From an uncultured virus (IMG/VR IMGVR_UViG_2684623068_000003) (Duplodnaviria > Heunggongvirae > Uroviricota > Caudoviricetes), in IMG/VR virus record IMGVR_UViG_2684623068_000003: a DNA stretch of 64,000 nucleotides; one strand, written 5' to 3'. Below, piece after piece: positions 18,736-55,306 of the stretch. The notes under the pieces were generated by a model. It was not told the DNA's origin and searched no databases. It saw only the letters and a program-made list of their open reading frames with translations. Both the position numbers and the translations under genes were made by a program. The stretch's first letter is position 1, and the number at the start of each line of letters is the position of its first letter.

Positions 18736-19168
18736 GAAAGCCGCGCCGGTGTTGCGTAAAAATCCCGATATGCTGCGCCTGTTTGTGGATAACGGGACGA
18801 TTGCGAGCACGCTGGCCGCGACGCTATCGCATGAAAATCTATACACGCTCAATGTGATGGTGACCGATTATTCTGGCGATTTGGATTTGCTCATCGTGCC
18901 GATTAACGCATGGCTGCGTGAAAACCAGCCGGATATCATGACCACGGACGAGGGCAAGCGGAACGGCTTCACCTACTTTGCTGACCTGAATAATCACGAC
19001 AGTATCGATGTGAGTTTTAGCCTGCGCCTCACCGAGCGCGTTATCGTCAAACAGGTAGATAAGGCGCTTCATGTGAAGCACCTCAGTGAGCCACCAATCC
19101 CGCAGCCGGTTGAGCGCCCCATGGCGCTCTATATCAATGGCGAGCTAGTGAGTCAGTGGGATGAATGA
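18701..19168 (+). CDS. R: Tail completion protein gpR
   Basis: MLKPKSLREAL..WLRENQPDIMTT. Confidence 0.94.
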   Translation: MLKPKSLREALEKAAPVLRKNPDMLRLFVDNGTIASTLAATLSHENLYTLNVMVTDYSGDLDLLIVPINAWLRENQPDIMTTDEGKRNGFTYFADLNNHDSIDVSFSLRLTERVIVKQVDKALHVKHLSEPPIPQPVERPMALYINGELVSQWDE

Positions 19169-19610
19169 GCTCAAACAGTTTGAGGAACGGCTCGCGGGGC
19201 TGATTGGCAACCTAACGCCGGTACAGCGCCGCAAAATTGCGGTCGAAGTGGCGAAGCGCTTGCGCAGCAGTCAAAAGCAGCGCATTAAGCAACAAAAAGC
19301 GCCCGACGGCACCCCTTACGCCAGCCGAAAACCGCAACCGGCCAGCGGTAAACGAGGCCGCGTAAAGCACCAGATGTTCGCCAAGCTGCGCACCAATCGC
19401 TTTATGAAAGCGCAAGGCTCAAGCGATGCCGCCGTGGTGGAGTTTGTCGGGCGTGTTCAACGCATGGTTCGGATACATCAAGAGGGTTTAAGCGATAAGC
19501 CGAACCGGTTTAGTCGTGAGGTTAAATACGATGCGCGCCCTCTGTTGGGGTTTAGTGCATCGGATAAGGATATAGTCGAGGAGGTGATGACTGCATTTCT
19601 TAGCGAGTGA
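19161..19610 (+). CDS. S: Tail completion/virion morphogenesis protein gpS
   Basis: QQKAPDGTPYASRK..MFAKLRT..YDARPLLG. Confidence 0.94.
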   Translation: MNELKQFEERLAGLIGNLTPVQRRKIAVEVAKRLRSSQKQRIKQQKAPDGTPYASRKPQPASGKRGRVKHQMFAKLRTNRFMKAQGSSDAAVVEFVGRVQRMVRIHQEGLSDKPNRFSREVKYDARPLLGFSASDKDIVEEVMTAFLSE

Positions 19611-19663: not shown

Positions 19664-19691
19664 CAGTCCGCTTTGAGCGAGGAGCGGAAGT
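19664..19691 (-). repeat. 28-bp cassette-boundary site, type A (spacer TCGCTC)
   Basis: Minus strand ACTTCCGCTCC-TCGCTC-AAAGCGGACTG; matches 51412-51439 of prophage 2. Confidence 0.85.
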
Positions 19692-19807: not shown

Positions 19808-20683
19808 TCAAAAATCTAAATCTACCGCATGATTGGACGGTTGATGCAAATTTTCTGCAGGATGCAAGGAATTCATGTAATCAATTATCTCTTGATTTTG
19901 TAACAAGGCAGAATAAAATGCACTCTGCCAATCTTTTCCAATGTCTGGCTGTGGAATCTCTGATAAACGTTGCTTTAATGCTGTACTCACGTCAAATTTT
20001 GCATTGGCCAATCTTCTCTTCCATTGCCGGAATTCCTTTTTGCTATAATGAATAATTCGTGATTTAATTTTTAATTTTTCCGCATGAATAATCACTCGCC
20101 TTTGGTCATCAGCCTGAGTTTCTATAATTCTTTTTAACTTTACCACTACAGATATATCATTGCTTTCAGTATTTAATGAGACATTCATTGAGAAACGAAA
20201 ATTCTCCAGAAAATTGAAATAAATAGGATGTATAAACATAGCTAAGTTATTTTCATTGCAATAATAATGCTCGCCTTTTACTGGAGCACAGCCTCTACAC
20301 TGAGGTACTAGATTATTAGGGAAAATAGAAAATTCAGGCCATTTTCCTTTAGGGATAAAATGATCTAAAGTGTCAGGAATCATTGGATTTCCACAGTAAG
20401 GGCAAAAGGAAAGTTCGTGTTCATTCCTTCTTTTAAGTAATAATTTGTTTAATTCCTTTGGTGCTTTTTCATAATATTCAATTAATAGATCAGAATGCTG
20501 TAGGAATGCACTCTCAGGTAGCGCATCATTACTAGAATCTATCAGACTATCATATGAACTATAATTATCAGATAGTTCTTCAGCTATAAGTTTAAGTTGT
20601 TGAACATTTTCTTTTTTACTTCCTCTTGCCGCGTCAAGCCATGCGCAAGGCTGATTTTCCATGAGTTCGCCTAAGTATTTCAT
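19808..20683 (-). CDS. HNH endonuclease (PtuB-like)
   Basis: CPYCG..TLDHFIPK..NNLVPQCRGC; translationally coupled to upstream ATPase. Confidence 0.85.
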   Translation of the reverse strand: MKYLGELMENQPCAWLDAARGSKKENVQQLKLIAEELSDNYSSYDSLIDSSNDALPESAFLQHSDLLIEYYEKAPKELNKLLLKRRNEHELSFCPYCGNPMIPDTLDHFIPKGKWPEFSIFPNNLVPQCRGCAPVKGEHYYCNENNLAMFIHPIYFNFLENFRFSMNVSLNTESNDISVVVKLKRIIETQADDQRRVIIHAEKLKIKSRIIHYSKKEFRQWKRRLANAKFDVSTALKQRLSEIPQPDIGKDWQSAFYSALLQNQEIIDYMNSLHPAENLHQPSNHAVDLDF

Positions 20684-22329
20684 TATTCATCCTCAAAAGA
20701 CATCTTGTCATCATCTGATTTTGAAAGTGCATAAGCTAATGCATCATTGCCGATATACCCCTTAATTTCAGAAATAGATGAGCTATCGCGAATGAAATAT
20801 TTATCAATCTCTTTTTGATAAGGCTTGCTTACATATTCATCATCGAATACTTCCGAGACTATTACATCAATTGACTCCCCATATGTTTCAACTGAGGATC
20901 TAAATACTTTGGTGTTCCCTTCAATTTTTCGTAATATAGTTACTGCATCTCTTTCAACTTCACGTGTCAATATTGATGAATGAGTGGCAATTATAGAAAA
21001 AGATTTTGTTTCATCCAAAATGTTCTTGAGCATGTTTATCAAACCAACTTCAAGCTCAGGGTGTAAGTAAAGTTCAGGTTCATCGAGGATTAATAAACTT
21101 TCTTCTTCAAGCTCAGATATTATTGCCGGAATCATATATGTATAAATTTTCTGACCTGAGCTTAGAGGAATTATGGCACCGTTTTTTTTAAAGATTAATC
21201 CTTTTTTTAAATTTATGTTTTCTTTGATGCTATTGATTCTAGTTTTTTCGTTTATGCAAATTTCATCACCACCATTATCCAGTATCGATATTGAATCAAA
21301 GGCTATTGAAATGGATAATGTTTCTTTTAGAAGTTGAAATCTCGTTTTATCATTCCACCAACCGTTTTCTTCATCATAACTTAGTATTTTAATAATTGAT
21401 TCAACGCTTTTTAAAACTGGGTATTCCGGGTCAAAGATTCCATCCTGATTTCTAAACCCTATATAAGAGTATTCATTTACATGTAAACGCTTTCTTTTCA
21501 AGCTTTTTTTGTTAGCTAAAGAGCCTTCCCGTGAATATTTTACCGTTAGCTTGTTGAATATTTCATTTTCTGTATAGAAGTCTTCAAATGGTGAGTGCGC
21601 AATAACTATTAACTTGTGAAAATAAGGTGGGTGCTCTTCACCGTCTGTAACACCTGTTATAACTTCACTTATTCTCTTCAATATATGGGTTTTGCCAACA
21701 CCATTCTTTCCGATTATAAGACAGATATTTGACTTCCCAACCTTTCTGTCCATGTTGAATTTAAAACTAATAGGGTCAAAACTCTCACCGAGGCTTTCAA
21801 TGTTCAGCTCAAATTTAGTTTTAGGATTATATCTCCCCAGTGCTATTTGATATCCTTTTTTCAAAATTGCAGCAGAAGAACTTCCTCTCATTAAACTACC
21901 TGAATATCCACCCCATTCAGAGTATTCGCTTTGATTCCTTAGAAAATATCCAGCATCACATAAAGATTCTAGCAGGGCATCTATTTTCTCTGGTTGAAAT
22001 AGTGAGTTTATCTTTTTATAATAGTCTATATCTTCACCAATCGAAACCAACTTATTTTCAGACAGTACGCCATTAATATTAATAATTTTTAGCTCAATTT
22101 CTTCACCATGTTCTTTAAAGTAAAGTGATGTGTTTTCATTTACTTTGGAAAGCATTTTTATATTGCCAATTTTTATCTTATCAGTATCTCTTACATAATA
22201 TACTTTGAACGTAATGATATATCCGAAGTCATCCCATGGAACTCCATAGTTTGTTCCTATATGATCCTGAAGCAAATGAATTCCAGGATATTTATCAATC
22301 ATTAATGTTTCCGAGTAGTAATAATCCAT
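20683..22329 (-). CDS. ABC/AAA_21-type ATPase (PtuA-like)
   Basis: Walker A GKNGVGKT, signature LSSGQK, Walker B LLILDEPE-LHP, switch IATHS; N-terminal WDDFGY. Confidence 0.88.
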   Translation of the reverse strand: MDYYYSETLMIDKYPGIHLLQDHIGTNYGVPWDDFGYIITFKVYYVRDTDKIKIGNIKMLSKVNENTSLYFKEHGEEIELKIININGVLSENKLVSIGEDIDYYKKINSLFQPEKIDALLESLCDAGYFLRNQSEYSEWGGYSGSLMRGSSSAAILKKGYQIALGRYNPKTKFELNIESLGESFDPISFKFNMDRKVGKSNICLIIGKNGVGKTHILKRISEVITGVTDGEEHPPYFHKLIVIAHSPFEDFYTENEIFNKLTVKYSREGSLANKKSLKRKRLHVNEYSYIGFRNQDGIFDPEYPVLKSVESIIKILSYDEENGWWNDKTRFQLLKETLSISIAFDSISILDNGGDEICINEKTRINSIKENINLKKGLIFKKNGAIIPLSSGQKIYTYMIPAIISELEEESLLILDEPELYLHPELEVGLINMLKNILDETKSFSIIATHSSILTREVERDAVTILRKIEGNTKVFRSSVETYGESIDVIVSEVFDDEYVSKPYQKEIDKYFIRDSSSISEIKGYIGNDALAYALSKSDDDKMSFEDE

Positions 22330-22657: not shown

Positions 22658-22685
22658 ACGTCCGTTCCTGGCACTAAACAGTCCA
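22658..22685 (+). repeat. 28-bp cassette-boundary site, type B (spacer TGGCAC)
   Basis: ACGTCCGTTCC-TGGCAC-TAAACAGTCCA; matches 44585-44612 (minus) of prophage 2. Confidence 0.85.
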
Positions 22686-22756: not shown

Positions 22757-23395
22757 ATGAGCACACAATCCCAACTATCCGAAATCTCGCGCCTACTGCG
22801 CAATCTTATCCGCACCGGTGTCGTGTCCGAAGTCGATGCCGATGGAGCCCTGTGCCGCGTCCAAACCGGTGACATACAAACCGGTTGGATTAACTGGCTG
22901 GCGCGTCGCGCTGGCCGTTCGCGTGACTGGTGGGCTCCGTCGGTGGGGGAACAGGTGTTATTGCTGGCCGTCGGCGGCGAGCTCGATACCGCCTTTGTCC
23001 TGACCGGCATTTACTGCGATGAATTCCCCGCCCCGTCGGCGTCTGCCGATGGTTGGCGCGTCGAGTTTCCTGACGGCGCGGTCATCGAGTACGAGCCCGA
23101 TACCGGCAAACTCAGCGTAAGCGGCATTAAAAGCGCGGATGTGACCGCCTCGGCGTCGGTGGTGGTGACTTGCCCGTCCGTCACCGTGACCGCCAGCCAA
23201 AAAATTATCCTCGATACCCCCGAAGTGGTTTGCACCAACAAGCTGACCACCGGCTCTATCGAGGTGAAAAAAGGCGGCACGATGCGCGGCACCATCGAAC
23301 ACACCGGCAAATTTACCTCCAACGGCGTGCAGGTTGACGATCATGGTCACGGCGGCGTTGAGCGTGGTGGCTCTTGGACGGAGGACACGAAATGA
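22757..23395 (+). CDS. V: Baseplate spike gpV
   Basis: NLIRTGVV..RAGRSRDWWAPSVGEQV..HGHGGV. Confidence 0.95.
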   Translation: MSTQSQLSEISRLLRNLIRTGVVSEVDADGALCRVQTGDIQTGWINWLARRAGRSRDWWAPSVGEQVLLLAVGGELDTAFVLTGIYCDEFPAPSASADGWRVEFPDGAVIEYEPDTGKLSVSGIKSADVTASASVVVTCPSVTVTASQKIILDTPEVVCTNKLTTGSIEVKKGGTMRGTIEHTGKFTSNGVQVDDHGHGGVERGGSWTEDTK

Positions 23396-32436: not shown

Positions 32437-32448
32437 GGAGCCGATACC

Positions 32449-39572: not shown

Positions 39573-40054
39573 GAAAATAACCCTCCGGCCATATCCTGCG
39601 CTTTCTGCGCCATCTCACCCGCCTGACCGGCTAAGTCGTTGGCCTGTTGTTGCAGGTCTCCGAACATCGCCCCGAGCGATTCATCGACGCGGGTTAGGGT
39701 CATGCTAAATTCAATCCTGCGAGCACTGCCATCGGCAAAAAAGACGCTTTGTGTCTGCGTCATGCTGGCGACAATGTACATGCCATAGATTGCCCCATCG
39801 CCACCAATCAGCGGCCATGCTTTACCCTGCTCGGCCATCGTTTTAAGCGTGAGCATAGACAGCGCGCCGCCGGTGATTTCAGGCAGTAACACGCCCGACA
39901 AAGTCACCTTATCCTCGCCAGCACCTAAAAACTGATAAGTGGGACGCTGCCCTACACGGCTGTTTGACGGCCAGCGATAATCGAGGCTTTGCTGTAATGA
40001 TTGATAAGGCAATGTCTGGAGCTGAAACACAAACAGCCCGAGCGTTAACATCAT
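39569..40054 (-). CDS. U: Tail protein gpU
   Basis: Near-identical to 32449-32934. Confidence 0.95.
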   Translation of the reverse strand: MMLTLGLFVFQLQTLPYQSLQQSLDYRWPSNSRVGQRPTYQFLGAGEDKVTLSGVLLPEITGGALSMLTLKTMAEQGKAWPLIGGDGAIYGMYIVASMTQTQSVFFADGSARRIEFSMTLTRVDESLGAMFGDLQQQANDLAGQAGEMAQKAQDMAGGLFS

Positions 40055-40066
40055 AGTAAGGGCTCC

Positions 40067-42511: not shown

Positions 42512-42964
42512 CAGTGTTTCCGCTTCGTTGTAGCGCTTTGTCGCGCCAGAGGGCGAGCTCGGTCAGGCTCATGGGGTTAAGTTCTGAGGGCGGCCAGTGA
42601 AATATCACTGCGATATCCGCCATCAGGTCATCGACCGATAAGTCGGTGGGAAAGTCTATTGAGCCGAATTCGGCGACAAAAAACCGATCACCTTACCGGC
42701 GAGCGCAATCATGTCGGGCAGTTCCAACTTGACCACGTCGCTCTCCAACAATGGCGGGTAGGTCATACGCGGCAGCACTTTAATCAGCGCATCAACGTCA
42801 GAATTTGCCACCGCCGCCAGACTCACGCCGCGCAGGGTTCCCGCATTGGGTTTGGTGAGGGTCACCTGCTCGATAAGCAGTTCGCCACGCTTAATTGGGT
42901 TTTCCAGCGTTACCACGTTGTCATTTTCAGGGGTGACGTGCTCAGTGATGTTTTTATCTTTCAT
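42501..42964 (-). CDS. E: gpE (42656-42964) and -1 frameshift product gpE+E'
   Basis: Slippery TTTTTTG at 42677-42683 (minus). Confidence 0.9.
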
Positions 42965-43024
42965 AATCGTTCTCTTTAAACAAGGGGATTAACCGGCCAG
43001 TGTTGCACCTGACCGGCCATTGCA

Positions 43025-43064
43025 TTACAGACCGATGTTTTTACGGTGCTGCGCTAAGCGGTCA
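43025..43064 (-). pseudogene. FII: 3' remnant of tail tube FII
   Basis: Encodes DRLAQHRKNIGL-stop, matching the FII C-terminus of prophage 1. Confidence 0.88.
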
Positions 43065-43527
43065 CCCGACCATCAGCACTGCGGCCATGGAATTGATACG
43101 CGCCGACTGAACCGGCCACGCTTAATCCCTCAAAGGCTTGCTGAATACGCACCCGAAAATCGTTGTCGGACTCCAGCACGGCGGCCAGAGGGGGAATAGC
43201 GGTGGTATCGGCGGGCGTAATGACCAGACGTTCAACGTTATAGTTCGAGCCGAGGTTATCCAGATCGCCGCCGGTGGCATAGGCCAGCATGTTCGCGCGG
43301 GCGGCTTCATTCACCCGCTGACGCCACATCACCTCGCGATAAGCGTTTTCTTCGAGCAACTTGGTCAAGGGTTCGGATTCGAGCTGCAAGGTACGCGCCA
43401 CCGCTTCGCGCTGGCTCTCGTCACACAGAGACAACAGCGCCGCCTTGCGCTCGGCTAAAATACTTTCGTAGTCCAGCACCTCGACCACATCGGGCGCGGG
43501 AAGCTGACTCAGGTCAATGGTTGCCAT
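43054..43527 (-). pseudogene. J: Truncated gpJ (N-terminal ~155 aa)
   Basis: Matches gpJ up to HGRSADGRV, then joins the FII remnant. Confidence 0.92.
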
Positions 43528-43530
43528 GGA

Positions 43531-43878
43531 TTAACTCACAGGTACGTTAAGGGAGAAGGTGCCGCCGGTATCGGTCAGGGTGCCGGTGATATCGACCACC
43601 ATCTCGCCGTTAAACCGGTTATCGAACGTGATGGCCGTGAGCCTAACGCGGGGCTCCCACTTTAAAATCGCCATGTAACAGGCGGCCATAATTTGTAGGT
43701 TGAGCGCGGCGTTCTGCGGTTGGTCAATCAGGGCAGATAGGAGCGAACCATACTCACGACGCATGACCCGCGTGCCGACCGGCGTGATTAGAATATCGCG
43801 CACGCTTTGGCGAATATGGGCGAGGTCATCAAGCTGCTGGCCGTCGTCTCGGCTCATGCCTGAATAACGCGCCGTCAT
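43531..43878 (-). CDS. W: Baseplate protein gpW
   Basis: Near-identical to 23392-23739. Confidence 0.95.
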   Translation of the reverse strand: MTARYSGMSRDDGQQLDDLAHIRQSVRDILITPVGTRVMRREYGSLLSALIDQPQNAALNLQIMAACYMAILKWEPRVRLTAITFDNRFNGEMVVDITGTLTDTGGTFSLNVPVS

Positions 43879-44513
43879 TTCGTTCCCTCCGTCCATTCAC
43901 CGCCGCCTTTAACGCCGCCATGCCCATGTTTATCAACCTGTACGCCGTTCGAGGTGAATTTGCCGGTGTGTTCTATGGTGCCGCTCATCGTGCCGCCTTT
44001 TTGCACCTCGATAGAGCCGGTGGTTAGCTTGTTGGTGCAAATCACTTCGGGGGTATCGAGGGTGATTTTTTCGCTGGCGGTCACGGTGACGGACGGGCAA
44101 GTCACCACCACCGACGCCGAGGCGGTCACATCCGCGCTTTTTATACCGCTCACACTAAGCGCGCCGGTATCGGGCTCGTACTCGATGACCGCGCCGTCAG
44201 GAAACTCGACGCGCCAACCATCGGCAGACGCCGACGGGGCGGGAAAGTCATCACAATAAATGCCGGTCAGGACAAAGGCGGTATCAAGCTCGCCGCCGAC
44301 GGCCAGCAATAACACCTGCTCCCCCACCGACGGAGCCCACCAGTCACGCGAACGGCCAGCGCGACGCGCCAGCCAGTTAATCCAACCGGTTTGTATTTCG
44401 CCGGTTTGGACGCGGCACAGGGCTCCATCGGTATCGACTTCGGACACGACACCGGTGCGGATAAGGTTGCGCAGTAGACGCGAGATTTCGGATAGTTGGG
44501 ATTGTGTGCTCAT
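43875..44513 (-). CDS. V: Baseplate spike gpV
   Basis: Near-identical to 22757-23395. Confidence 0.95.
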   Translation of the reverse strand: MSTQSQLSEISRLLRNLIRTGVVSEVDTDGALCRVQTGEIQTGWINWLARRAGRSRDWWAPSVGEQVLLLAVGGELDTAFVLTGIYCDDFPAPSASADGWRVEFPDGAVIEYEPDTGALSVSGIKSADVTASASVVVTCPSVTVTASEKITLDTPEVICTNKLTTGSIEVQKGGTMSGTIEHTGKFTSNGVQVDKHGHGGVKGGGEWTEGTK

Positions 44514-44584
44514 GGGGAAAGGATGCCGCTAGGGAGGATTAGCGGCAATGTGATAGCGTAGGATGGGGGATCAGACAACAGGGA

Positions 44585-44612
44585 TAGACTGTTTAGTGCC
44601 AGAAGCGGACAT
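44585..44612 (-). repeat. 28-bp site, type B
   Basis: ATGTCCGCTTC-TGGCAC-TAAACAGTCTA. Confidence 0.85.
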
Positions 44613-44721
44613 ATCTTCAGATATTCTTATGGTGAAAAAACACAGCCATCAATTATTGTTCAATATCAATAATCAAAGCATGTTAGAGTTTCATTCGTAA
44701 GGAAAATCTCATCAGAAAAAT

Positions 44722-44749
44722 GCTTTATCACAGTGCCAAAAGTGGATAA
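44722..44749 (-). repeat. Degenerate type B site
   Basis: TTATCCACTTT-TGGCAC-TGTGATAAAGC; shares GTGCCAAAAGTGG with 46216-46228. Confidence 0.45.
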
Positions 44750-44830
44750 TCTATCACCTATTCATCTAGAGTTCGTTAGGTTTCGTTATCATTCGATTCA
44801 ATGTTCTTATACAAGGAATAGTTAGTCTCT

Positions 44831-46105
44831 ATGAGTGTCATAAAAGATTTTTTAGAACAATATAGCAAGCAGTATGATTACTATTCTGAGTTGGCAAAAA
44901 TTGGCTCAAACTTGCTCGAGCAGGAATTGGAGAAGAGAGGGATTAAAGCCATAGTTTCATTCAGAGCTAAGCGACCAGACCGCTTAGAACAAAAACTTAA
45001 TCAAAGAAATGAAAAGTCAGCATATGCAGATGTTGCTAATATATATGAAGATATCGTCGACCTGGCCGGTGTTCGAGTAGCTTTATATTTTCCAAAAGAT
45101 AGAGAAGTAGTTGATGAAACTATTAATTTTTTATTTAACGTCCGAAAAAAGAAAAACTTTCCAGAAGCATCTTATAAACCTAAGTTTGAAAAAAGATTTT
45201 CTGGTTACTGGGCATCTCATTATCGTGTCAATTTGAAAAACTCTAACCAAAATAAGAAGCGTTACGAAAGTGCATTATTTGAGATTCAAGTAGCATCGGT
45301 TCTTATGCATGCCTGGTCGGAAGTCGAACATGACCTTGTTTACAAACCTCTAGCAGGCGATTTGTCTGAAGAGGAACTTGCAATCCTGGATGAGATTAAT
45401 GGATTAGTGCTTACTGGCGAAATAGCTCTTGAAAGACTTCAAAAAGCCATAACAAAAAGAACTAAAGAAAAAGATAATATTTCAAATAGATATGAATTAA
45501 CGAGTTTTATAACCAACTCACTTAATAAGAATTATATAAACAAACTTAAATTAGGTGATACTAAAATTTTATTTAATTATCTCAAAGATAATTCTAGCAT
45601 AAGCGTCAGTGAACTTTCTGAATATTTGCGTAAAATTAATCAAAGTGAAAAAGAAACAATCACAGATCAATTGCTTCTTATGATTATTAATGATTCATAC
45701 AAGAGCGTTGGAAGTAATTTAAATCTTTCAAATTATTTCAAACATGCTCTTGGGGAACATAAGGATGTATCAGGGTTTGAGTCATTTGTTAAAACATGGA
45801 TTTTACTAGAAAAAGCAGTGTCTTTAATTCACAATCAAAACAATCGCCAGCACAAAAAATTCTTCACCGCAAAATTTGAGCCATTGGTTTCTGACGGAGT
45901 GCTGACGCAGGAAGAGTCAATTGAACTAAACTATTTTAAAAGAATTAGAAATAACTTACTTCATGGTATAGAAACACCTAACGATAAAGATCTAAACGAA
46001 ATGTTCGTTAGGTTGTTAGCATTAACTGAGAAGATTATCTCATCTATTAAAAATGATGATGATAAAGCTAAATTGCTCAAAGAAATAAAGACATTGAGTG
46101 ATTAA
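44831..46105 (+). CDS. RelA/SpoT (small alarmone synthetase-type) domain fused to a C-terminal HEPN-like domain
   Basis: RAK, DLAGVRV, GYWASHY, EIQVASVLMHAWSEVEHDLVYK; C-terminal FVKTWILLEK..RIRNNLLHG (RX4H). Confidence 0.85.
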   Translation: MSVIKDFLEQYSKQYDYYSELAKIGSNLLEQELEKRGIKAIVSFRAKRPDRLEQKLNQRNEKSAYADVANIYEDIVDLAGVRVALYFPKDREVVDETINFLFNVRKKKNFPEASYKPKFEKRFSGYWASHYRVNLKNSNQNKKRYESALFEIQVASVLMHAWSEVEHDLVYKPLAGDLSEEELAILDEINGLVLTGEIALERLQKAITKRTKEKDNISNRYELTSFITNSLNKNYINKLKLGDTKILFNYLKDNSSISVSELSEYLRKINQSEKETITDQLLLMIINDSYKSVGSNLNLSNYFKHALGEHKDVSGFESFVKTWILLEKAVSLIHNQNNRQHKKFFTAKFEPLVSDGVLTQEESIELNYFKRIRNNLLHGIETPNDKDLNEMFVRLLALTEKIISSIKNDDDKAKLLKEIKTLSD

Positions 46106-46178
46106 AATATGAGATAAAAATCATGGTCATAGGCTAATTATTGTTTTGTATTCAGAGCCTGAATCTAAGCAGAATGAT

Positions 46179-46232
46179 ATGTCCGCTCCTCGCTCAAAGC
46201 AGCCCACTCCGCTTCGTGCCAAAAGTGGCAGT
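46179..46232. repeat. Back-to-back type A (46179-46206, +) and type B (46205-46232, -) sites
   Basis: ATGTCCGCTCC-TCGCTC-AAAGCAGCCCA / ACTGCCACTTT-TGGCAC-GAAGCGGAGTG. Confidence 0.85.
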
Positions 46233-46329
46233 AGCTAATAGTCGATTGCGTGGAACAACTGAAACCAAATCAAATAGCCGCTATTGACACATGATGCAAA
46301 TACCCCGCAAGAGCGGGGTTTGAACGAAA

Positions 46330-46713
46330 CTACAATTTTTTAATCAGATTCTCAATATTGGCTGGTTCAAAGTAATGCGGATTAACTTCACCATTTATGA
46401 GGAAACCATCTTTAAGTAGGTCTTCAAGTTCACTCTCTACCTCTTTGTCGAAGATACCTGGATATATTCTCTTGTATGCCTGAAAGGTACCTTTCATCTT
46501 CCTGCAAGCATTTTCCGCGATTTCGAATGAGATCTCGTTTCCTGCATTAAAGGCCGGTATGAAGATCTCAAGAATATCGTTCTTTAGCTTCTGCTTAAGT
46601 TTCTTCTTTTCAACGATATTTGAGTAACAGATACCTAAAAAGAAGGTGAAGATACCAGGAACCCAATTGTTAACGAAAACTTCAAGAATCCCTTTAATAG
46701 ACAAAGTGTCCAC
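46330..46713 (-). CDS. Hypothetical protein with N-terminal TM helix
   Basis: 127 aa; GTG start with AGGAG SD; hairpin ACCCCGC-AAGA-GCGGGGT downstream (46302-46319). Confidence 0.7.
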   Translation of the reverse strand: MDTLSIKGILEVFVNNWVPGIFTFFLGICYSNIVEKKKLKQKLKNDILEIFIPAFNAGNEISFEIAENACRKMKGTFQAYKRIYPGIFDKEVESELEDLLKDGFLINGEVNPHYFEPANIENLIKKL

Positions 46714-46928
46714 TATCTTACTCCTGAATTAAGATTGAGGTTCATAAAGTACAAACCCAGTACAAGTCGGGTATTAAACTGCAGGTCGAATACGTTATTT
46801 ATTATACAGCGTTCATGTGAAAGTGCTTCACCTTTGGTGGCAAATTGCATGCGAATCCGTTTGCCGCTTGCCCTAAATAGATAACACTCGCTAAACCACT
46901 TTCCTGATAGGTGCTTACGAACGATCAT
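46713..46928 (-). pseudogene. 5' remnant of a P2-family integrase
   Basis: MIVRKHLSGKWFSECY..GKRIRMQFATKGEALSHE aligns by eye to the N-terminus of int at 1-1056. Confidence 0.85.
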
Positions 46929-47169
46929 TCTGTTTAGGCTTCATGAGTAAATCCCGGATTTTCGCAAGGTTTGAATTTTCGGGGGCTGAATCCATGTATG
47001 GATCGCGCTCAAACACTAATTGCTCAGACTCAACAAAAGCATGCCACTCTACTGGGTCTAGCTCAAATTCCATCGCCGACATATCACTTTCATCTTCCCC
47101 CTTGATCCAGCGGACTAAATAAAACAATTCATCATCAGGATGACTCATCATCGTCATCAACAATATCAA
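46915..47169 (-). CDS. Hypothetical acidic protein, probably 5'-truncated
   Basis: 84-aa ORF overlapping the int remnant start; weak start. Confidence 0.4.
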   Translation of the reverse strand: MILLMTMMSHPDDELFYLVRWIKGEDESDMSAMEFELDPVEWHAFVESEQLVFERDPYMDSAPENSNLAKIRDLLMKPKQNDRS

Positions 47170-47385
47170 CGTCGGTTACAGTGATGCGAAGGGTGGGATC
47201 GATTTTTGAGACATAAATCCCTAACTGCGGCATTGTTGTTCATGAGAATTCCTTTTATTAGTGTTTGCTATTCGAATAAAAATACGCCAAACAGTGTGCT
47301 TACTGTGAATACGGCAAGAATCGTTATAAGTATCCCGCTTAGACGCCCCATTCTCTTTCTGAGGGAGTATGTTACCTGAAAACGA

Positions 47386-47450
47386 ACTTCTGTTCCTCGC
47401 TCAAAGCAAACCCAATGACCACGTAACCGTTGCGTGCCAGAAGCCGACTT
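47386..47450. repeat. Back-to-back type A (47386-47413, +) and type B (47423-47450, -) sites
   Basis: ACTTCTGTTCC-TCGCTC-AAAGCAAACCC / AAGTCGGCTTC-TGGCAC-GCAACGGTTAC. Confidence 0.82.
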
Positions 47451-47536
47451 TTGGTAGTTGTCAGTAGGATGGTATTTGAGCAGAATGAGACAGCCTTAAA
47501 GGATGTTCGTTTTTTATACAACAACACAAGGTCTGA

Positions 47537-48061
47537 ATGGGGCTGCTGGCCCACAAAAGAAAGGATGTACGAGATCGAGCTATGCGTATTCATCAGCAGA
47601 ATAAGTCCCGTAAACTATATCGCAGCGTCAACACGACGACGCGGCACCATTCTAATAATCCGGGTGCTGAGTATCGGTGGGAACGAAATCGCAAAAAAGT
47701 CGGAGATGAGCTACTGGTAAAGCGCGAGACAATGCATAGCAGACAGAAGCGTGGCCGAGACTACACACCATTGTTTTATTTTCTGATCAAAGAGATTGGC
47801 AAGCCGTGGAATGAAATATTCAGCGAAGTATGTGGACGTCTTGATACCACCGAGCCGGTATTCTGGTTGGTCGCGCTACATGAGCATCAGCGAAGGGGTC
47901 TAGTCTGCATTGGTGAAAGCAGTTTTTACCCAGGTCTGTTTGTTGATGAGAATGGAATTCTGCAACAGGTAAACCTTTCAATCACAAGAGATGACGTTAA
48001 GGTGACATGTCGTTGCTGCACACACACTTATATTGGTGAACCTGTACCTTGGATAGATTGA
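47537..48061 (+). CDS. Hypothetical basic protein with C-terminal CRCCTH motif (start may be 47582)
   Basis: 174-aa ORF filling the interval between two site pairs; DYTPLF, PVFWLV, GLFVDENG. Confidence 0.7.
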   Translation: MGLLAHKRKDVRDRAMRIHQQNKSRKLYRSVNTTTRHHSNNPGAEYRWERNRKKVGDELLVKRETMHSRQKRGRDYTPLFYFLIKEIGKPWNEIFSEVCGRLDTTEPVFWLVALHEHQRRGLVCIGESSFYPGLFVDENGILQQVNLSITRDDVKVTCRCCTHTYIGEPVPWID

Positions 48062-48119
48062 GTGACACCACCTATCTTATCTTGGATGCGATCATTGTCA
48101 GCAGTAAGAGTGCTTGCAA

Positions 48120-48180
48120 ACATCCGTTACTCACTTACTCCGGGCAGTTAGCCCTTCCGCAATGTGCCAGGAACGGACAT
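48120..48180. repeat. Degenerate type A (48120-48147, +) and type B (48153-48180, -) sites
   Basis: ACATCCGTTAC-TCACTT-ACTCCGGGCAG / ATGTCCGTTCC-TGGCAC-ATTGCGGAAGG. Confidence 0.75.
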
Positions 48181-48230
48181 TGTCGGTAAAATGGAGTATG
48201 AGTGTCGTTGAATGCTTTTATAATGTGGCT

Positions 48231-49145
48231 CTAGTGCTTTTCAAGTATTTCATACGAGAACTCCACATGTGGATGAACATACTCTGCTGAATTAATCTCA
48301 CGTTGCACATTATCAATTGTTACAACGCAGAGAACCCCATTGGTGTTTAGTAGGACAGCCTTTTGCCCTACAGCCGGAGTAACAGAACGACCTGGAGTTA
48401 AGAAAGAATTGACAGTCAAGGGATCAAAATCTGCAACTGTAATCAACCCGACGGCTTTGAGTCCACCATCTATATAGAGGTAAACACTACTGTCTGAGTG
48501 TGCACTAAATGCTATTTTAAACTGATATTCACTGTTACCAATCGTATAGTGGGCATTGTCTTTGAAGCGAAAAATCTCGCGTCCCTTGAGTGCTGGATTC
48601 GCATAATGCGAAGGAGCACGAAGAATATCAATATGTTCAAGCCTTGCAATACGTTGACGATAAACCGATAATGGAGTCGTATGCTTTTTATCTGTTGGCA
48701 GTCCTTCAATCCAACGCCAAATAGCATCGATCTGTATAGAGCCAGGAAATTCATTTCTATCAGGATTAGAATTAAAGTCAAAGCCCTTAGGATTATGCCC
48801 CTCAAGCCAATTAGGTAGTTTTCGCTCAGGATTTCGAACAAAGATAACCGACAACCATGTCGAGTGCTTTGTCATAAAAGCTTCACTTATCCATTTGTTT
48901 TCGATACCAACCCCTGAATTCGGTTTGTTATTAGCTCGTTGGACATAGTTATCGTCGACAATCAACAGTACATGATCGGTTTCGATAACCTCTCGCATGA
49001 AACCAGATAAGCTTGAACCATATTTTACAGATTCATCGATTTTAACCGTATAGCCAATAAGGTCGAGATGGCTTGCAATTAGTCGAACCCATTCCCTATG
49101 GACATCTGAAGTCCAAGCGTATGAAATAAATAAATCGGTTTTCAT
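48231..49145 (-). CDS. TIR (TIR_2/SEFIR-like) domain protein with beta-rich C-terminal domain
   Basis: LFISYAW..HREWV..ID..G.SL..FM..VLLIVDDNY..GVGIE (putative catalytic Glu). Confidence 0.88.
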   Translation of the reverse strand: MKTDLFISYAWTSDVHREWVRLIASHLDLIGYTVKIDESVKYGSSLSGFMREVIETDHVLLIVDDNYVQRANNKPNSGVGIENKWISEAFMTKHSTWLSVIFVRNPERKLPNWLEGHNPKGFDFNSNPDRNEFPGSIQIDAIWRWIEGLPTDKKHTTPLSVYRQRIARLEHIDILRAPSHYANPALKGREIFRFKDNAHYTIGNSEYQFKIAFSAHSDSSVYLYIDGGLKAVGLITVADFDPLTVNSFLTPGRSVTPAVGQKAVLLNTNGVLCVVTIDNVQREINSAEYVHPHVEFSYEILEKH

Positions 49146-49289
49146 TCATTAAGCCCAGCTTAAGTTGTGTGATAAGATAATTGTCTATCCCGAATGCTCG
49201 TTTGACAAATTTTTTTAAACTCCCCCTGAGATAGAAAAACCTTACTTGAGTTATCGGTATAAAGCAACCGCACAGAGGTCTCCAACTCA

Positions 49290-49317
49290 TCGTCCGCCCT
49301 TCGCTCAGAGCTGCCTT
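49290..49317 (+). repeat. Type A site
   Basis: TCGTCCGCCCT-TCGCTC-AGAGCTGCCTT. Confidence 0.75.
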
Positions 49318-49349
49318 TCATGCCTGCTTATAAAATAGGCTTAGCGTAG

Positions 49350-49644
49350 GATAGTTAGGGGCACGACGACTACGATTTATCCGCGTATCCACACCGCCTT
49401 CATCGGCCAGTTCGCGGTAACCATAGAACGAATCACGTGAAATTCCCATGATTTTACAGGCTTTTGATACATTGCTGAGTTCTTCAGCCAAATTGAGTAA
49501 ACCGGCTTTGTGTTTGATAATGCGATTGGTAGTATGAAGCATGAGAGTTACCTTGTGTTTTGTGTAAGGATTCGACACTCATATCAAAACCGGTAATCCT
49601 CAACCTTTCAAGGCCATGTGTCAGATCAAGTCGCGACTGATACA
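49350..49644 (-). mobile_element. IS481-family remnant (left end plus truncated transposase)
   Basis: End TGTATCAGTCGCGACTTGATCTGACA (49619-49644); MLHTTNRIIKHKAGLLNLAEELSNVSKACKIMGISRDSFY. Confidence 0.85.
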
Positions 49645-49672
49645 GGTAATGTGTCCACCACGCTAAATTTGA

Positions 49673-50416
49673 TTAACTCTCAAGAGTATCAAGGCCTTCT
49701 ACGTAATTTTTTTTCAAATCTTCTATAAGCTTGGGTAGTTTTCTGATTATGCTTTCATCCCTATAAAAATCGGTATGTTCAGCCTGTGTCAGAAAATCTA
49801 TAATATCAGTTCGAGTGTGAATCCCTTTATTTTCATCATAGCAGTCCACAAAGGCTTTAATCCCATAAAAAAGGTCTACTCGTCGTTCCTGTAAGGTTTT
49901 ATTCTTGCTCAACAATAGTTCATTTTCTTTCTGTAGCTCTAAATTTTCTTGCTCTAAGTTATTGGCTTTCTTGGTTTTATCCGCTATAGATGCTCTTAAT
50001 TTTTGGTACTCATTTTCCACCTCAAGGTCAGCCATCCCATCTTCGCGCCTGATTTTTGCAAACCACTTCGAGGTGAATTTGGAAACATTATAAGTTACAA
50101 ATGGGGCACCTAGAGAGACTATTAATCCTGTAACAAGAGGCAATCCAAAATGTGCAGACCATGGTGATAAAAAGAAATCGCCAATGAAGGGAAGACAGAA
50201 ACTCTGACCAGTGAAAATCATAGACAGGGTGTAATAAATATCCTCTTTGGTCTTGATTAAAATAATTATTTCTTGCCAATTTAGGACAAAAAATGAAACT
50301 AAGACGTAGAAGTATATTTTATTAAATAATTTAGTTCTTAATTCGCCATGTAATGTTCCCAATACACTTGGCTTATCAAGCTTATCCTCACTGTTATTTG
50401 CACTTTCCACACTCAT
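49673..50416 (-). CDS. Hypothetical membrane protein with coiled coil
   Basis: 247 aa; hydrophobic N-half, LEQENLELQKENELL heptads; AT-rich. Confidence 0.75.
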   Translation of the reverse strand: MSVESANNSEDKLDKPSVLGTLHGELRTKLFNKIYFYVLVSFFVLNWQEIIILIKTKEDIYYTLSMIFTGQSFCLPFIGDFFLSPWSAHFGLPLVTGLIVSLGAPFVTYNVSKFTSKWFAKIRREDGMADLEVENEYQKLRASIADKTKKANNLEQENLELQKENELLLSKNKTLQERRVDLFYGIKAFVDCYDENKGIHTRTDIIDFLTQAEHTDFYRDESIIRKLPKLIEDLKKNYVEGLDTLES

Positions 50417-50502
50417 AGCCCTTTATATACTCAGTTTATATTAATCCATTAACGAATAGCACCGCTGCAAACAACCGGTGCTATTCAACATAATTTAATT
50501 TT

Positions 50503-50922
50503 TTATAAAAACAATTCTGGTTTCACACCAAAACGAGCCGACAGTGCCTTAATGTGAGTAATGGTCAAAGAGCGCTGGCCAGACAGAATCTGGCTAACCA
50601 GTGATTTAGAGCCGATCTCCTCTTTGAGATCAGAGTAAGACAGCTTGTGCTGGTCAATCAGGGTACGCAGCAGTGCAACGCCGACCGGCATTTCAGCGTT
50701 AGCTTTGTTGAATTCAGCGAAACGAGGGCTATTATCTTCATAGTCGGCAATCTTACTCACCAAAAAGTCAATAAGCGGGTTCTCGTCGTCGTTCTCGATC
50801 AAGTAGTCCACCAGCTCCAACGCTTCGCGGTAATCGCTCTCGGACGAACTGCCCCCTAGGAAGGGGACAGCAGCTATGAGTTGTTTGGTTGCTTCAATGG
50901 CTTTTGCGGTGTCGGTAATCAT
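50503..50922 (-). CDS. higA: HigA antitoxin (HTH)
   Basis: LLRTLIDQHKLSYSDLKEEIGSKSLVSQILSGQRSLT..LSARF. Confidence 0.92.
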   Translation of the reverse strand: MITDTAKAIEATKQLIAAVPFLGGSSSESDYREALELVDYLIENDDENPLIDFLVSKIADYEDNSPRFAEFNKANAEMPVGVALLRTLIDQHKLSYSDLKEEIGSKSLVSQILSGQRSLTITHIKALSARFGVKPELFL

Positions 50923-51230
50923 TCTTTGTTCTCCCTGTAATAGCGGGTCAACTTGTCGTAATCAGCGTGGGTTGCGATGTGCTTCACATAGAAGCGCTTA
51001 TTCATGAAATTGATATAGACAATAACCCTCAAGTTGTTGCCTCCTACATTTAAAACCCACCACTTGTTCCGGTACTTGAAATTATCCATGCTCGGTATCA
51101 GAGTTGGCATCTCAGTTGGAGAAGAGAAATCCGTCTCGCGCACTAAGCGGTACAGTGCCCGAATGGCTAACGAATCGTTGGGATATCGCTTTGCCGCTTC
51201 CTCAAAAGGCTCTTTTGAAATTACGTGCAT
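50919..51230 (-). CDS. higB: HigB toxin (RelE-like mRNase)
   Basis: MHVISKEPF..WWVLNVGGNNLR..FYVKHIATHADYD; toxin-first order. Confidence 0.92.
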   Translation of the reverse strand: MHVISKEPFEEAAKRYPNDSLAIRALYRLVRETDFSSPTEMPTLIPSMDNFKYRNKWWVLNVGGNNLRVIVYINFMNKRFYVKHIATHADYDKLTRYYRENKE

Positions 51231-51411
51231 TTTGCGGCCATTCTATCCGTTTACATTATATGAACATGATAGTGCCACCCTTTACCGTTTGCAATATGTA
51301 AACGGTGACTTTTCATTTCATAACCTCGGAAAAATCCCTACTTAACCTGAACCGAGTGGACCTTGAGGGCATGATCTGCTCCCTGTTGATTCACACTGAA
51401 TGCTGTTAGCA

Positions 51412-51439
51412 ATGTCCGCTCCTCGCTCAAAGCGGACTG
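51412..51439 (+). repeat. Type A site (S-proximal)
   Basis: ATGTCCGCTCC-TCGCTC-AAAGCGGACTG, internal dyad GTCCGCT/AGCGGAC. Confidence 0.88.
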
Positions 51440-51492
51440 CTAGTGTTAACTTTACTTTGAGCAAACTTTTGGATACTGGTGACTAAAACTTA

Positions 51493-52404
51493 TCACCCGC
51501 TAAGAAATGCGGTGACGACATCCTCAACGATATGCTTATCCGATGCACTAAACCCTAATAGCGGGCGTGCATCATACTTCACCTCACGGCTAAAGCGGTT
51601 CGGCTTATCGCTTAAGCCCTCTTGATGTATCCGCGCCATACGCTGAACACGCCCGACAAACTCGACCACGGCGGCATCGCTTGAGCCTTGCGCTTTCATA
51701 AAGCGATTGGTGCGCAGCTTCGCAAACATCTGGCGCTTTACGCGGCCTCGTTTGCCGCTGGTTGGTTGTGGCTTTCGGCTGGCGTAGGGTGTGCCGTCGG
51801 GCGCTTTCTGTTGCTTAATGTGCTGTTGCTGACTGGTGCGCAAGCGCTTCGCCACTTTCACCGCAATTTTGCGGCGCTGCACCGGCGTTAGGTTGCCAAT
51901 CAGCCCCGCGAGCCTGTCCTCAAACTGTTTGAGCTCACTCATATCCCACTGACTCACTAGCTCGCCGTTGATATAGAGCTCCATGGGGCGCTCAACCGGC
52001 TGCGGGATTTGTGGCTCGTTAAGGTGCTTCACATGAAGCGCCCTATCCACCTGTTTGACGATAACGCGCTCGGTGAGGCGCAGACTAAAACTGACATCGA
52101 TACTTTCGTGATTATTCAGGTCAGCAAAGTAAGTGAAGCCGTTCCGTTTGCCCTCATCAGTGGTCATGATATCCGGCTGGTTTTCGCGGAGCCATGCGTT
52201 AATCGGCACAATGAGCAAATCCAGATCGCCAGAATAATCGGTTATGGTCACATTGAGCGTGTACAGATTTTCATGCGATAGCGTCGCGGCTAGCGTGGTC
52301 GCAATCGTCCCGTTATCTACAAACAGGCGCAGCATATCGGGATTTTTACGCAGCACCGGCGCGGCTTTCTCAAGCGCTTCGCGCAGACTTTTGGGCTTTA
52401 ACAT
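51493..52404 (-). CDS. In-frame gpR-gpS fusion
   Basis: 303 aa = R (..ELVSQWD) + S (MSELKQF..); TGGGATATGAGT versus TGGGATGAATGA in prophage 1. Confidence 0.88.
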   Translation of the reverse strand: MLKPKSLREALEKAAPVLRKNPDMLRLFVDNGTIATTLAATLSHENLYTLNVTITDYSGDLDLLIVPINAWLRENQPDIMTTDEGKRNGFTYFADLNNHESIDVSFSLRLTERVIVKQVDRALHVKHLNEPQIPQPVERPMELYINGELVSQWDMSELKQFEDRLAGLIGNLTPVQRRKIAVKVAKRLRTSQQQHIKQQKAPDGTPYASRKPQPTSGKRGRVKRQMFAKLRTNRFMKAQGSSDAAVVEFVGRVQRMARIHQEGLSDKPNRFSREVKYDARPLLGFSASDKHIVEDVVTAFLSG

Positions 52405-52657
52405 CGTGTGACTCCTGGCACTGTTTCACGGTTTCCACCTGTAGCGCACAGCTCACCAGTGCGCGCTCTAATTGGCGGTTGTCTTCACTCAGATCGCCGT
52501 TAGTTTTCGGTAGGCTTGCCGGTATCGGGCAGCTCGTCACCTTCGGACAACCAACGTAGATAAGCGTCGGGGGTATCAAAGGCGGGACGGGTGTGCAACC
52601 TTGCAATGTCATCAGGCAAAGCAGACTGATACCAATCGCGCAGCGCTTTATTTTCAT
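52370..52657 (-). CDS. lysC: Spanin lipoprotein LysC
   Basis: Near-identical to 18448-18735. Confidence 0.85.
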   Translation of the reverse strand: MKIKRCAIGISLLCLMTLQGCTPVPPLIPPTLIYVGCPKVTSCPIPASLPKTNGDLSEDNRQLERALVSCALQVETVKQCQESHDVKAQKSARSA

Positions 52658-52925
52658 TGAGTAGCCTCGTTATTTTTTGGTCTTTGCCGGTGGCGAGCTG
52701 CTGCGCGTGGCTAAGTTTCTGACGTAATACCACCTGAGCGCGTTCGCTGCGGTTAGCGTTATCGCGCACTACGTTGAGCTGATTGTTTAAGGTGGCAAGG
52801 TCATTTTTTTGCATACCGATGGTTTGCGTGGCGGCGCTGAGGGTTTGCCCCAGCTCGCGATTTTCACGCTTTAACCACCACAGGCCGACCATGGCCACTA
52901 TCAGCAAGATAATCAGCGTTTTCAT
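52500..52925 (-). CDS. lysB: Spanin LysB
   Basis: Homologue of 18180-18620, 5 aa shorter. Confidence 0.9.
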   Translation of the reverse strand: MKTLIILLIVAMVGLWWLKRENRELGQTLSAATQTIGMQKNDLATLNNQLNVVRDNANRSERAQVVLRQKLSHAQQLATGKDQKITRLLNENKALRDWYQSALPDDIARLHTRPAFDTPDAYLRWLSEGDELPDTGKPTEN

Positions 52926-53422
52926 TGAGCGAGCTCGCCCCCAGCTGCGCGATAGACCTCGACCAGTTTGTCGAGTTGGTGCTCTCGCTGGCCGTAACCG
53001 GCACCCGGCAGGGATGCCCAAATGTTTCGGCACTTGCTAATCGCTTGCTCAATATCACCGCGCTCGATATCCGCAAGGCTTCGCTGCTCGGTCAGTAATT
53101 GCACCGCGAGGCGGTCTTGTGATGACGGGCTAAAGTCAGGCAGTGAAAGCAATGCTTTATAGTGCGGCCAGTAGCGATAAAGCTGCTGATAACGCCCCGA
53201 GGCGGTCGAGCGCTCACCGCGTCGGTTGAAGGTTTTCGCGGGACGACCGTGCGCAAACGGGTGATCGCTGTAGTCGGTGAAAATCTCCGGCTTGCCATCA
53301 ATACCCGTCACCACCACGTCATAGCCCTGATTTCGGGTGAGTGGATGGGTCGCCGTTCCCTCAGAAAACGCCAGCATATCGAGAAACGCGGCGACGTTTG
53401 GATGGACTTTAATCACGGCCAT
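52922..53422 (-). CDS. K: Endolysin
   Basis: Near-identical to 17683-18183. Confidence 0.95.
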   Translation of the reverse strand: MAVIKVHPNVAAFLDMLAFSEGTATHPLTRNQGYDVVVTGIDGKPEIFTDYSDHPFAHGRPAKTFNRRGERSTASGRYQQLYRYWPHYKALLSLPDFSPSSQDRLAVQLLTEQRSLADIERGDIEQAISKCRNIWASLPGAGYGQREHQLDKLVEVYRAAGGELAQ

Positions 53423-53718: not shown

Positions 53719-53721
53719 GAA

Positions 53722-55304: not shown

Positions 55305-55306
55305 GA

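Follow-up and report, generated by a model that had tools for sequence, protein, structure and literature searches.

By what route anti-phage defence genes pass from one mobile element to an unrelated one is still an open question. A 54-bp interval (46179-46232) in the DNA of an uncultured virus of the class Caudoviricetes (IMG/VR record IMGVR_UViG_2684623068_000003) bears on it and raises the more specific question of what this interval is and which enzyme might act on it. The whole stretch of 64,000 nucleotides (nt) that was analysed is called the window throughout. The interval consists of two 28-bp sites lying back to back, a class A site in plus orientation, A(+), and a class B site in minus orientation, B(-), which together join two cargo cassettes. 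Based on comparisons of viral contigs, bacterial genomes and public sequencing runs, these are probably core-type recombination sites of a cassette-exchange system, worked on matched spacers by a tyrosine recombinase of ca. 200 amino acids (aa). The 28-bp site pair and the candidate 200-aa enzyme make the question of defence-gene hopping testable.

Each site is composed of a conserved arm on the cargo side (AYGTCCGCTYY), a 6-bp spacer and a variable arm on the backbone side. Sites with the spacer TCGCTC were assigned to class A and sites with the spacer TGGCAC to class B. Scans with the inner arm and spacer, combined with inspection, yielded 11 copies in the window (Table 1), five of class A (TCGCTC in 5/5) and six of class B (TGGCAC in 6/6). 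A preliminary description of this DNA had arrived at the same total with a different split, namely six A and five B sites. Its statements that the spacer is nearly invariant within each class and that the inner arm is conserved and the outer arm more variable were borne out in all 11 copies, the better conserved arm always pointing towards the cargo and the variable arm towards the backbone or an adjoining site. The 11-6-11 dyad that it described applies to the family rather than to most copies at this locus: the family consensus (GTCCGCTCY / ARAGCGGAC) forms a 9-bp dyad, whereas arm complementarity in the window reaches 2 to 7 of 11 positions and appreciable folding is predicted for only two of the 11 copies. 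Using the degenerate pattern of the preliminary description with up to 3 mismatches, 5 matches were obtained against 0.06 expected, a number reached by none of 100 shuffles. The loosest inner-arm and spacer scan returned 10 matches, 9 of them real, compared with a mean of 1.75 in 20 shuffles. All copies are confined to the inter-operon gaps between genes S and V of two P2-like prophages, and in both prophages the S-V slot has A at its S side and B at its V side. The order in the right prophage is B, degenerate B, cassette 1, A.B, cassette 2, A.B, cassette 3, single B, cassette 4, A, cassette 5, A, where A.B stands for two adjoining sites as in the flagged interval.

Homology between the window and Escherichia coli genomes breaks at these sites. 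Four blocks were found: 44596-46202 (cassette 1, 96.6% identity) in E. coli chromosomes, 46201-47403 (cassette 2, 97.5%) in many E. coli genomes, and 46201-48169 (cassettes 2 and 3, 98.2%) and 48167-49285 (cassette 4, 86.4%) in one E. coli genome each. The blocks have different homes in E. coli, including an e14-like remnant, an integrase-bearing island beside ychF and another island, and in one of these genomes another cargo gene lies between an A and a B site of a Qin-like lambdoid prophage. The identities of the blocks of cassettes 1 to 3 (96.6-98.2%) contrast with the 67-69% of the phage backbone to known P2-like phages. Junction alignments at six boundaries showed that identity spans the inner arm and the spacer and stops within 1-2 bases, with a different outer arm beyond. 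Judged from these alignments, crossovers fall in the spacer: the cassette takes its inner arm and spacer along, and the outer arm remains in its context. Further, cassettes were found re-ordered. In four public runs from four studies, cassettes 2 and 3 are followed by cassette 1 on one contig, through a joint from 48163 to 44596 at which 7 letters (the B spacer plus one base) match either side. Contig pieces in the four runs end at 46196 or 46200 and begin at 46201, within the flagged composite, and in two of the four runs the A site of cassette 1 leads into the beginning of the recombinase module described below. The breaks inside the composite and the re-ordered runs thus mark the flagged 54 bp as the junction of two independently assorting cassettes. 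The whole array was not seen elsewhere, no public run containing more than 37% of its sampled words; the left slot (19100-22900) gave no megablast match in phage records and the left cargo none in E. coli genomes. A separate observation concerns E. coli NZ_CP033850 (locus L128, 4711-6290), where homology to the window stops one base past the TCGCTC spacer, at the expected place of the outer arm, and an IS1182-family transposase gene lies ca. 140 bp past that break. An insertion sequence (IS) may have inserted at this site.

The two-spacer rule was then assessed in viral contigs and reference genomes with both arms fixed and the spacer left free. Among the viral matches listed, to which all counts of viral sites and of neighbouring site pairs given here refer, there were at least 149 strand-matches from at least 125 loci. 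Their spacers were TGGCAC/GTGCCA (75), TCGCTC/GAGCGA (32), TTGCAC/GTGCAA (18), TAGCAC (12) and others (12), with no A/B hybrid spacer among the 149. Deduplication by context left 98 distinct sites, comprising 35 A sites, 48 B sites, 6 one-off variants and 9 others. Two spacer types hence cover 83/98 distinct viral sites, and free variation of the spacer was not observed. The second base of the B spacer does vary outside the window, the 48 distinct B sites being divided into TGGCAC (41), TAGCAC (5) and TTGCAC (2). In reference genomes the same arms turned up in 19 site rows from 16 titled Enterobacterales loci; two rows duplicate sites common to the overlapping loci L206 and L207, and 16 of the 19 rows carry TCGCTC or TGGCAC. 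A further 64 titled loci from other taxa showed 41 different spacers.

The arrangement of the sites follows a strict grammar. Cassette-length neighbours are arranged as B(-)...A(+) with the conserved arms facing inward in 25/26 distinct pairs, close neighbours form A(+).B(-) composites in 10/11 pairs, and these composites recur at a fixed spacing of 42-45 nt. The slot between genes G and FI (Z/fun) of P2-like contigs has B at the G side and A at the FI side, as does that of Peduovirus P2 NC_070905. Other contexts include positions downstream of lambdoid O/P/ren and lom, of umuC-like genes, of an invertase and of the P2 genes Q, A and D. Two E. coli chromosomes contained 8 and 11 matches (up to 3 mismatches), mostly clustered in two or three places each; this copy number rules out a genome-wide repeat of the REP (repetitive extragenic palindromic) or BIME (bacterial interspersed mosaic element) type.

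A small tyrosine recombinase is linked to the sites. It consists of ca. 200 aa and contains the Phage_integrase catalytic domain only (PF00589, E 2.9e-17), preceded by ca. 45 residues. The catalytic residues R51, K79, H148, R151, H174 and Y183 do not vary among 14 diverse members, which were drawn from three proteobacterial classes. The nearest solved relative is XerD (E 0.004), to which the HxxR, LLGH and Y motifs can be aligned. Model scores are far under the respective cut-offs (XerC: 54.6 vs 335.15, XerD: 42.2 vs 329.6, XerA/integron integrase: 62.5 vs 220), and identity of the linked enzyme with XerC or XerD is ruled out by these equivalog scores. The family is very large, with 7998 of 8000 scored candidates at E 1e-10 or better, at least 569 genome loci and occurrence on 581 plasmids, and its members carry generic names only. 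A serine-recombinase reading of the sites (13-2-13 with an invariant central GC) was set aside, the linked enzyme being a tyrosine recombinase, and a sigma-54 -24 element (TGGCAC) was set aside by eye as no -12 element is present at the required distance.

The recombinase gene is framed by the same two spacers. At 26 Enterobacteriaceae loci, its 3' side shows a constant hairpin just past the stop codon, then GTGCCA and a variable RRAGCGGAC arm (26/26), and its 5' side a variable GTCCGCTYY arm, TCGCTC and a constant leader (21/26). The sequence outside both spacers differs between all of these loci. This module is present in 940 of 5426 complete E. coli genomes, where homology extends from the TCGCTC spacer to a point just past GTGCCA, and one E. 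coli island carries a frameshifted 200-aa integrase gene 60 nt downstream of an A-type site. On a lambdoid contig (L368) the order is backbone, B, cassette, A.B, cassette, A, recombinase, B, cassette, A, backbone. Alphaproteobacterial loci have a conserved hairpin with an arm-like motif after the gene (65/78 in a palindrome search) followed by a GTGCCA or GGGCCA site, and one alphaproteobacterial homologue adjoins a site found by the arm pattern only. Judged by this linkage, the 200-aa tyrosine recombinase is likely the enzyme of these sites. The preliminary description had proposed sites of the tyrosine-recombinase type with two non-matching spacers and fixed polarity, a proposal that is supported by the spacer classes, the B...A grammar, the breakpoints at the spacer and the framed recombinase gene. 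A different situation was encountered on a P2-like contig from IMG/VR (L381, 2692-5123): in its G-FI slot, a recombinase copy (residues 1-189) lies within the cargo without flanking sites of its own, between a TAGCAC B site and an A site.

In the mechanism we propose, the ca. 200-aa recombinase would join A with A and B with B. The enzyme would be supplied in trans by another element, because the window contains no copy of it. Its gene, like the phage backbone, would occupy a register bordered by the outer arms of an A and a B site, and cargo one bordered by the inner arms of a B and an A site. Two matched crossovers (A x A and B x B) between replicons would then replace a cassette. Recombination of A with A between direct repeats of an array would free a circle containing one cassette and a short A-linker-B composite, and such a circle could enter any A or B site by one crossover. 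Circle insertion would account for composites and arrays, including the five-cassette array, and the flagged 54 bp would represent such a composite. Unlike spacers and the inverted order of A and B would together protect a cassette from being flipped or lost through A x B recombination and would thus fix cassette polarity in a slot. The predicted absence of loss by A x B fits a September 2026 survey of P2/P4 hotspots in thousands of elements, the available text of which reports rapid swapping and no P2 element with both main hotspots empty (PMC13586616). This text leaves the exchange mechanism open, with transposons, homologous recombination and illegitimate recombination as options, and a term search of it returned no mention of repeats or motifs.

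Several findings weigh against this interpretation. Apart from the missing recombinase copy in the window, a recombinase match was found in only 35/301 Enterobacteriaceae species genomes, and ca. 12 of those listed are interrupted by internal stops. No recombinase match was obtained in one genome that gave 14 site matches as opposed to 3 control matches. The arms of the module itself, ATAAGGGAC and AGCAGCCCT, agree poorly with the arm consensus, and a consensus-arm site within 400 nt upstream is present at only 10/80 alphaproteobacterial recombinase loci. An array of 17 related sites in a Dyella genome, described below, has no recombinase or integrase within ca. 7 kb to its left and 12 kb to its right. 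Identical spacers within a class limit the placement of breakpoints to the spacer ±1-2 bp, and the second-base variants of the B spacer would fall into sub-classes under strict spacer matching.

Some of these findings would be expected if the sites were real recombination sites of another enzyme, either host XerC/XerD or a resident phage integrase, and the small recombinase were a mere passenger. Most site-bearing genomes lack an intact small recombinase, the only integrase in the window is of the P2 type (1-1056), and the arms of the recombinase module make poor sites. We consider this explanation unlikely. Sites are found in P2-like, lambdoid and island settings whose integrases differ, the module is bounded exactly by both spacers in 21-26 of 26 loci, alphaproteobacterial relatives adjoin GTGCCA- or GGGCCA-type sites and, as regards XerC and XerD themselves, the small recombinase scores far under both cut-offs.

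Exchange might also proceed with no dedicated enzyme at all, the conserved 20-28 bp serving as short-homology handles for homologous or illegitimate recombination, so that handle-sharing cassettes spread better. The window, being without a recombinase, is compatible with this idea, and both types of recombination are among the options left open in the available text of the 2026 hotspot survey (PMC13586616). Nevertheless, at all junctions examined (the six boundaries and the joints in four runs) the inner arm belonged to the cassette and the outer arm to its surroundings. This partition places the exchange point within ca. 6-8 bp, too short for homology-driven exchange. Handles would, moreover, need neither fixed asymmetric spacers nor a strict inverted A/B grammar, and we regard an enzyme-free route as improbable.

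If the same recombinase instead acted on folded single-stranded sites, similar to integron attC sites, during rolling-circle replication or conjugation, the 9-bp dyad of the family consensus would find an explanation. The P2 rolling-circle initiator (Phage_GPA), the complementarity of the A and B spacers at 4/6 positions and the fixed 42-45 nt spacing of composites point in the same direction. Set against this, 9/11 window copies have no meaningful hairpin (minimum free energy (MFE) -5.8 or weaker, z -0.4 or higher) and yet retain inner arm and spacer, and a joint between cassettes can also consist of one unpaired site (48153-48180), making folded substrates a rather remote prospect. That the sites are RNA hairpins, terminators or insulators at cassette ends, with the coincidence of homology breaks being secondary, is largely refuted and highly improbable, for even though two copies adjacent to gene S fold (MFE -7.5 and -10.7) and the sites are located between operons, none of the 7 terminator-like calls in 44300-51700 (6.1 expected) overlaps a site, a T run follows the site in 0/11 copies, site orientation is not fixed relative to the cassette genes, no Rfam family was found at the sites, loop letters are as conserved as stems and an obligatory-hairpin role, raised in the preliminary description along with termination, was looked for and not found.

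Cassette exchange between matched spacers resembles several known systems in part. Integron attC sites are 57-141 bp long with paired R and L boxes. Integrons and the present system have in common arrays of small accessory or defence cassettes split by short sites, a tyrosine recombinase and the existence of enzyme-less arrays. They differ in that the present site is 28 bp long with nothing conserved outside, that two inverted site classes stand in place of one attC type, and that the enzyme is ca. 200 aa in size and stays far below the cut-off of the XerA/integron-integrase model. No IntI-type integrase was found next to the Dyella array or in the window arrays, and no attI/Pc platform was seen. 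In pdif modules of Acinetobacter plasmids, inverted 28-bp XerC/XerD sites with dif-like arms bound resistance and toxin-antitoxin modules. Small modules between inverted 28-bp recombinase sites on many replicons are thus shared features, whereas the arms described here are GC-rich and a dedicated small recombinase is linked to them in place of the host XerC/XerD used by pdif. The R64 shufflon likewise has one conserved and one variable arm about a short conserved core. In this system Rci, a larger protein, inverts segments within one gene at asymmetric sfx sites, and the sfx core presumably resembles the B spacer on the other strand, which we treat as a lead only. Engineered lox, FRT and att pairs are non-cross-reacting flanking sites that give fixed-orientation replacement by two matched crossovers. 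Recombinase-mediated cassette exchange with heterospecific sites is, according to the available text of PMC7736782, an engineered design. Here, too, two mutually non-recombining sites flank a cassette, but the system would be a natural one with inverted sites and a spacer code common to many replicons. If this heterospecific logic holds, it would offer a compact natural tool for cassette exchange.

The closest precedent comes from P2 itself. Inverted repeats flank P2 fun (Z/fun, 'TO'), and Nilsson, Karlsson and Haggard-Ljungquist (2004, Mol Biol Evol 21:1) proposed site-specific exchange with bacterial genomes, as paraphrased in the available text of PMC8987985. Within the available text of each, their paper is also cited in PMC9122126 and PMC13748975, and Rousset et al. 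(2022) cite it for variable loci only. In Peduovirus P2 NC_070905, as in numerous P2-like contigs, the present motif lies on both sides of the G-FI cargo. In contrast to the 2004 work as paraphrased, the sites described here include an S-V slot, a five-cassette array and two spacer classes with strict grammar; lambdoid prophages and chromosomal islands contain them too, and a small recombinase gene is framed by them. Word searches of the literature, with supplements outside their scope, returned no description of a two-spacer architecture, of sites outside P2 or of the small recombinase, and site 15-mers had no match in the paper library. Inverted repeats at the P2 Z/fun slot have been known since 2004; the two-spacer logic and the enzyme were not found in print.

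The same arms with other spacers occur beyond Enterobacterales. A Dyella genome (L254, 6892-18766; G003:C140) contains 17 sites in direct orientation, all with the spacer GGGTCG and 400-2700 bp apart, with one small open reading frame (ORF) between most of them. Nothing is conserved beyond 24-28 bp in the 17 aligned sites, and a classical attC identity appears unlikely for this array given the lack of conserved flanks and of a nearby integrase. In a Hyphomicrobium genome (L255, 5568-5952; G004:C94), three sites with the spacers GGGTCA, GGGCCA and GGGCCA follow each other at an exact 45-nt spacing, 200 nt past a tRNA gene, and similar site doublets are found on four other contigs; doublets and triplet share the 45-nt spacing and alternate between GGGTCA and GGGCCA. 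The spread of arms and spacers suggests a putative superfamily with clade-specific spacer pairs. We cautiously favor a broader interpretation, in which a widespread and so far unrecognised integron-like system of 200-aa recombinases and heterospecific 28-bp site pairs would swap defence and toxin-antitoxin cassettes among phage families, plasmids and chromosomal islands across Proteobacteria. As part of this interpretation, the spacer pairs would be TCGCTC/TGGCAC in Enterobacterales and TGACCC/TGGCCC in Hyphomicrobium, with a single CGACCC type in Dyella. If true, such a system would be a missing mechanism for defence-gene flow between unrelated mobile elements. The site pair also provides a sequence signature that delimits cargo cassettes and could guide the search for new defence genes in phages, islands and plasmids.

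Table 1. Sites, flanking genes and cargo in the S-V slots of the two prophages in the window. Site sequences are given as arm, spacer, arm.
Feature	Position	Strand	Site sequence	Evidence and remarks
Class A site, S-side edge of left cargo	19664..19691	-	ACTTCCGCTCC TCGCTC AAAGCGGACTG	Inter-prophage homology (repeat I11) stops at 19688 / 51415
Class B site, V-side edge of left cargo	22658..22685	+	ACGTCCGTTCC TGGCAC TAAACAGTCCA	Repeat I3 begins at 22660
Class B site B1, V-side edge of right array	44585..44612	-	ATGTCCGCTTC TGGCAC TAAACAGTCTA	E. coli block of cassette 1 begins at 44596, the spacer
Class B site, degenerate, weakest of 11	44722..44749	-	TTATCCACTTT TGGCAC TGTGATAAAGC	2 substitutions
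Class A site A1, first half of flagged interval	46179..46206	+	ATGTCCGCTCC TCGCTC AAAGCAGCCCA	Identity to E. coli locus L127 stops one base past spacer
Class B site B2, second half of flagged interval	46205..46232	-	ACTGCCACTTT TGGCAC GAAGCGGAGTG	Same site and cassette in E. coli loci L128 and L129
Class A site A2	47386..47413	+	ACTTCTGTTCC TCGCTC AAAGCAAACCC	Identity to L128 stops one base past spacer
Class B site B3	47423..47450	-	AAGTCGGCTTC TGGCAC GCAACGGTTAC	Site scans
Class B site B4, lone joint of cassettes 3 and 4	48153..48180	-	ATGTCCGTTCC TGGCAC ATTGCGGAAGG	Identity to L129 stops exactly after GTGCCA
Class A site A3	49290..49317	+	TCGTCCGCCCT TCGCTC AGAGCTGCCTT	Site scans
Class A site A4, S-side edge of right array	51412..51439	+	ATGTCCGCTCC TCGCTC AAAGCGGACTG	0 mismatches to pattern of preliminary description
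Left prophage gene S (tail completion)	19161..19610	+		ORF; 67-69% identity to P2-like tail completion genes; last gene before cargo slot
Left prophage gene V	22757..23395	+		ORF; repeat I3 pairs with 43875-44513; first gene past cargo slot
Right prophage gene V	43875..44513	-		ORF and repeat I3
Right prophage gene S	51493..51942	-		Repeat I11 with 19161-19688, 90%
Left cargo, 291-aa protein and 548-aa ATPase	19808..22329	-		Candidate defence pair PDC-M01 B/A (PADLOC E 7.7e-128, 4.1e-248); Pfam AAA_21; GC 0.33
Cassette 1, 424-aa RelA/SpoT-domain protein	44831..46105	+		Pfam RelA_SpoT, E 1.5e-13
Cassette 2, 127-aa protein, no family found	46330..46713	-		Block extends to 47403
Cassette 3, 174-aa protein, no family found	47537..48061	+		Pfam search
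Cassette 4, 304-aa TIR/SEFIR protein	48231..49145	-		Pfam TIR_2; PADLOC bSEFIR, E 3.8e-43
Cassette 5, 247-aa protein, HigA-like helix-turn-helix protein and HigB-like toxin	49673..51230	-		Pfam HTH_3, HigB_toxin; PADLOC PD-Lambda-2 A/B-like

The two P2-like prophages are inverted relative to one another. Self-comparison of the window revealed long inverted repeats that pair 6272-19688 with 51415-63842, and 22660-24211 and 29428-34080 with 38419-44610. The P2 gene order is kept by the ORFs, and Pfam matches include the P2-type integrase and replication protein A (Phage_GPA) among others. The backbone is 67-69% identical to known P2-like phages and gave no megablast match in phage records. Its GC content is 0.52-0.58, compared with 0.33-0.42 in the S-V stretches. 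Judged by its predicted families (Table 1), the cargo in these stretches is defence-like.

A number of smaller observations concern the prophages. Relative to the left prophage (24211-29428), the right one (42987-43059) lacks ca. 5.2 kb comprising the end of J and genes I, H, G, FI and FII; repeats I3 and I12/I23 meet at this point, and J is shortened to 157 aa. From this gene content, the right prophage should be incapable of building tails. The classical Z/fun slot (G-FI) of the left prophage (27611-27747) measures 137 bp and contains a terminator-like hairpin but neither cargo nor a site of either class. Cargo of the left-prophage lineage is housed in the S-V slot instead of the Z/fun slot. 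The A-Q slot of the left prophage (8358-10838) encodes a fused type II methyltransferase-restriction enzyme (Pfam BsuBI_PstI_RE; PADLOC MTase_II, E 0), that of the right prophage (60731-62464) an unrelated 577-aa ORF without a family, and the site scan detected no A or B sites next to the A-Q cargo of either prophage.

Two further observations were made within the cassettes. In cassette 2, a 51-nt stretch (46880-46930) is 75% identical to the start of the left integrase gene (1008-1058; repeat D8), which may be due to chance. Inside cassette 5, a 290-bp piece (49354-49644) is 90% identical to the ylbG helix-turn-helix pseudogene region of ca. 2950 E. coli genomes; it overlaps a sub-threshold psRNA2 match and is possibly an insertion-sequence remnant.

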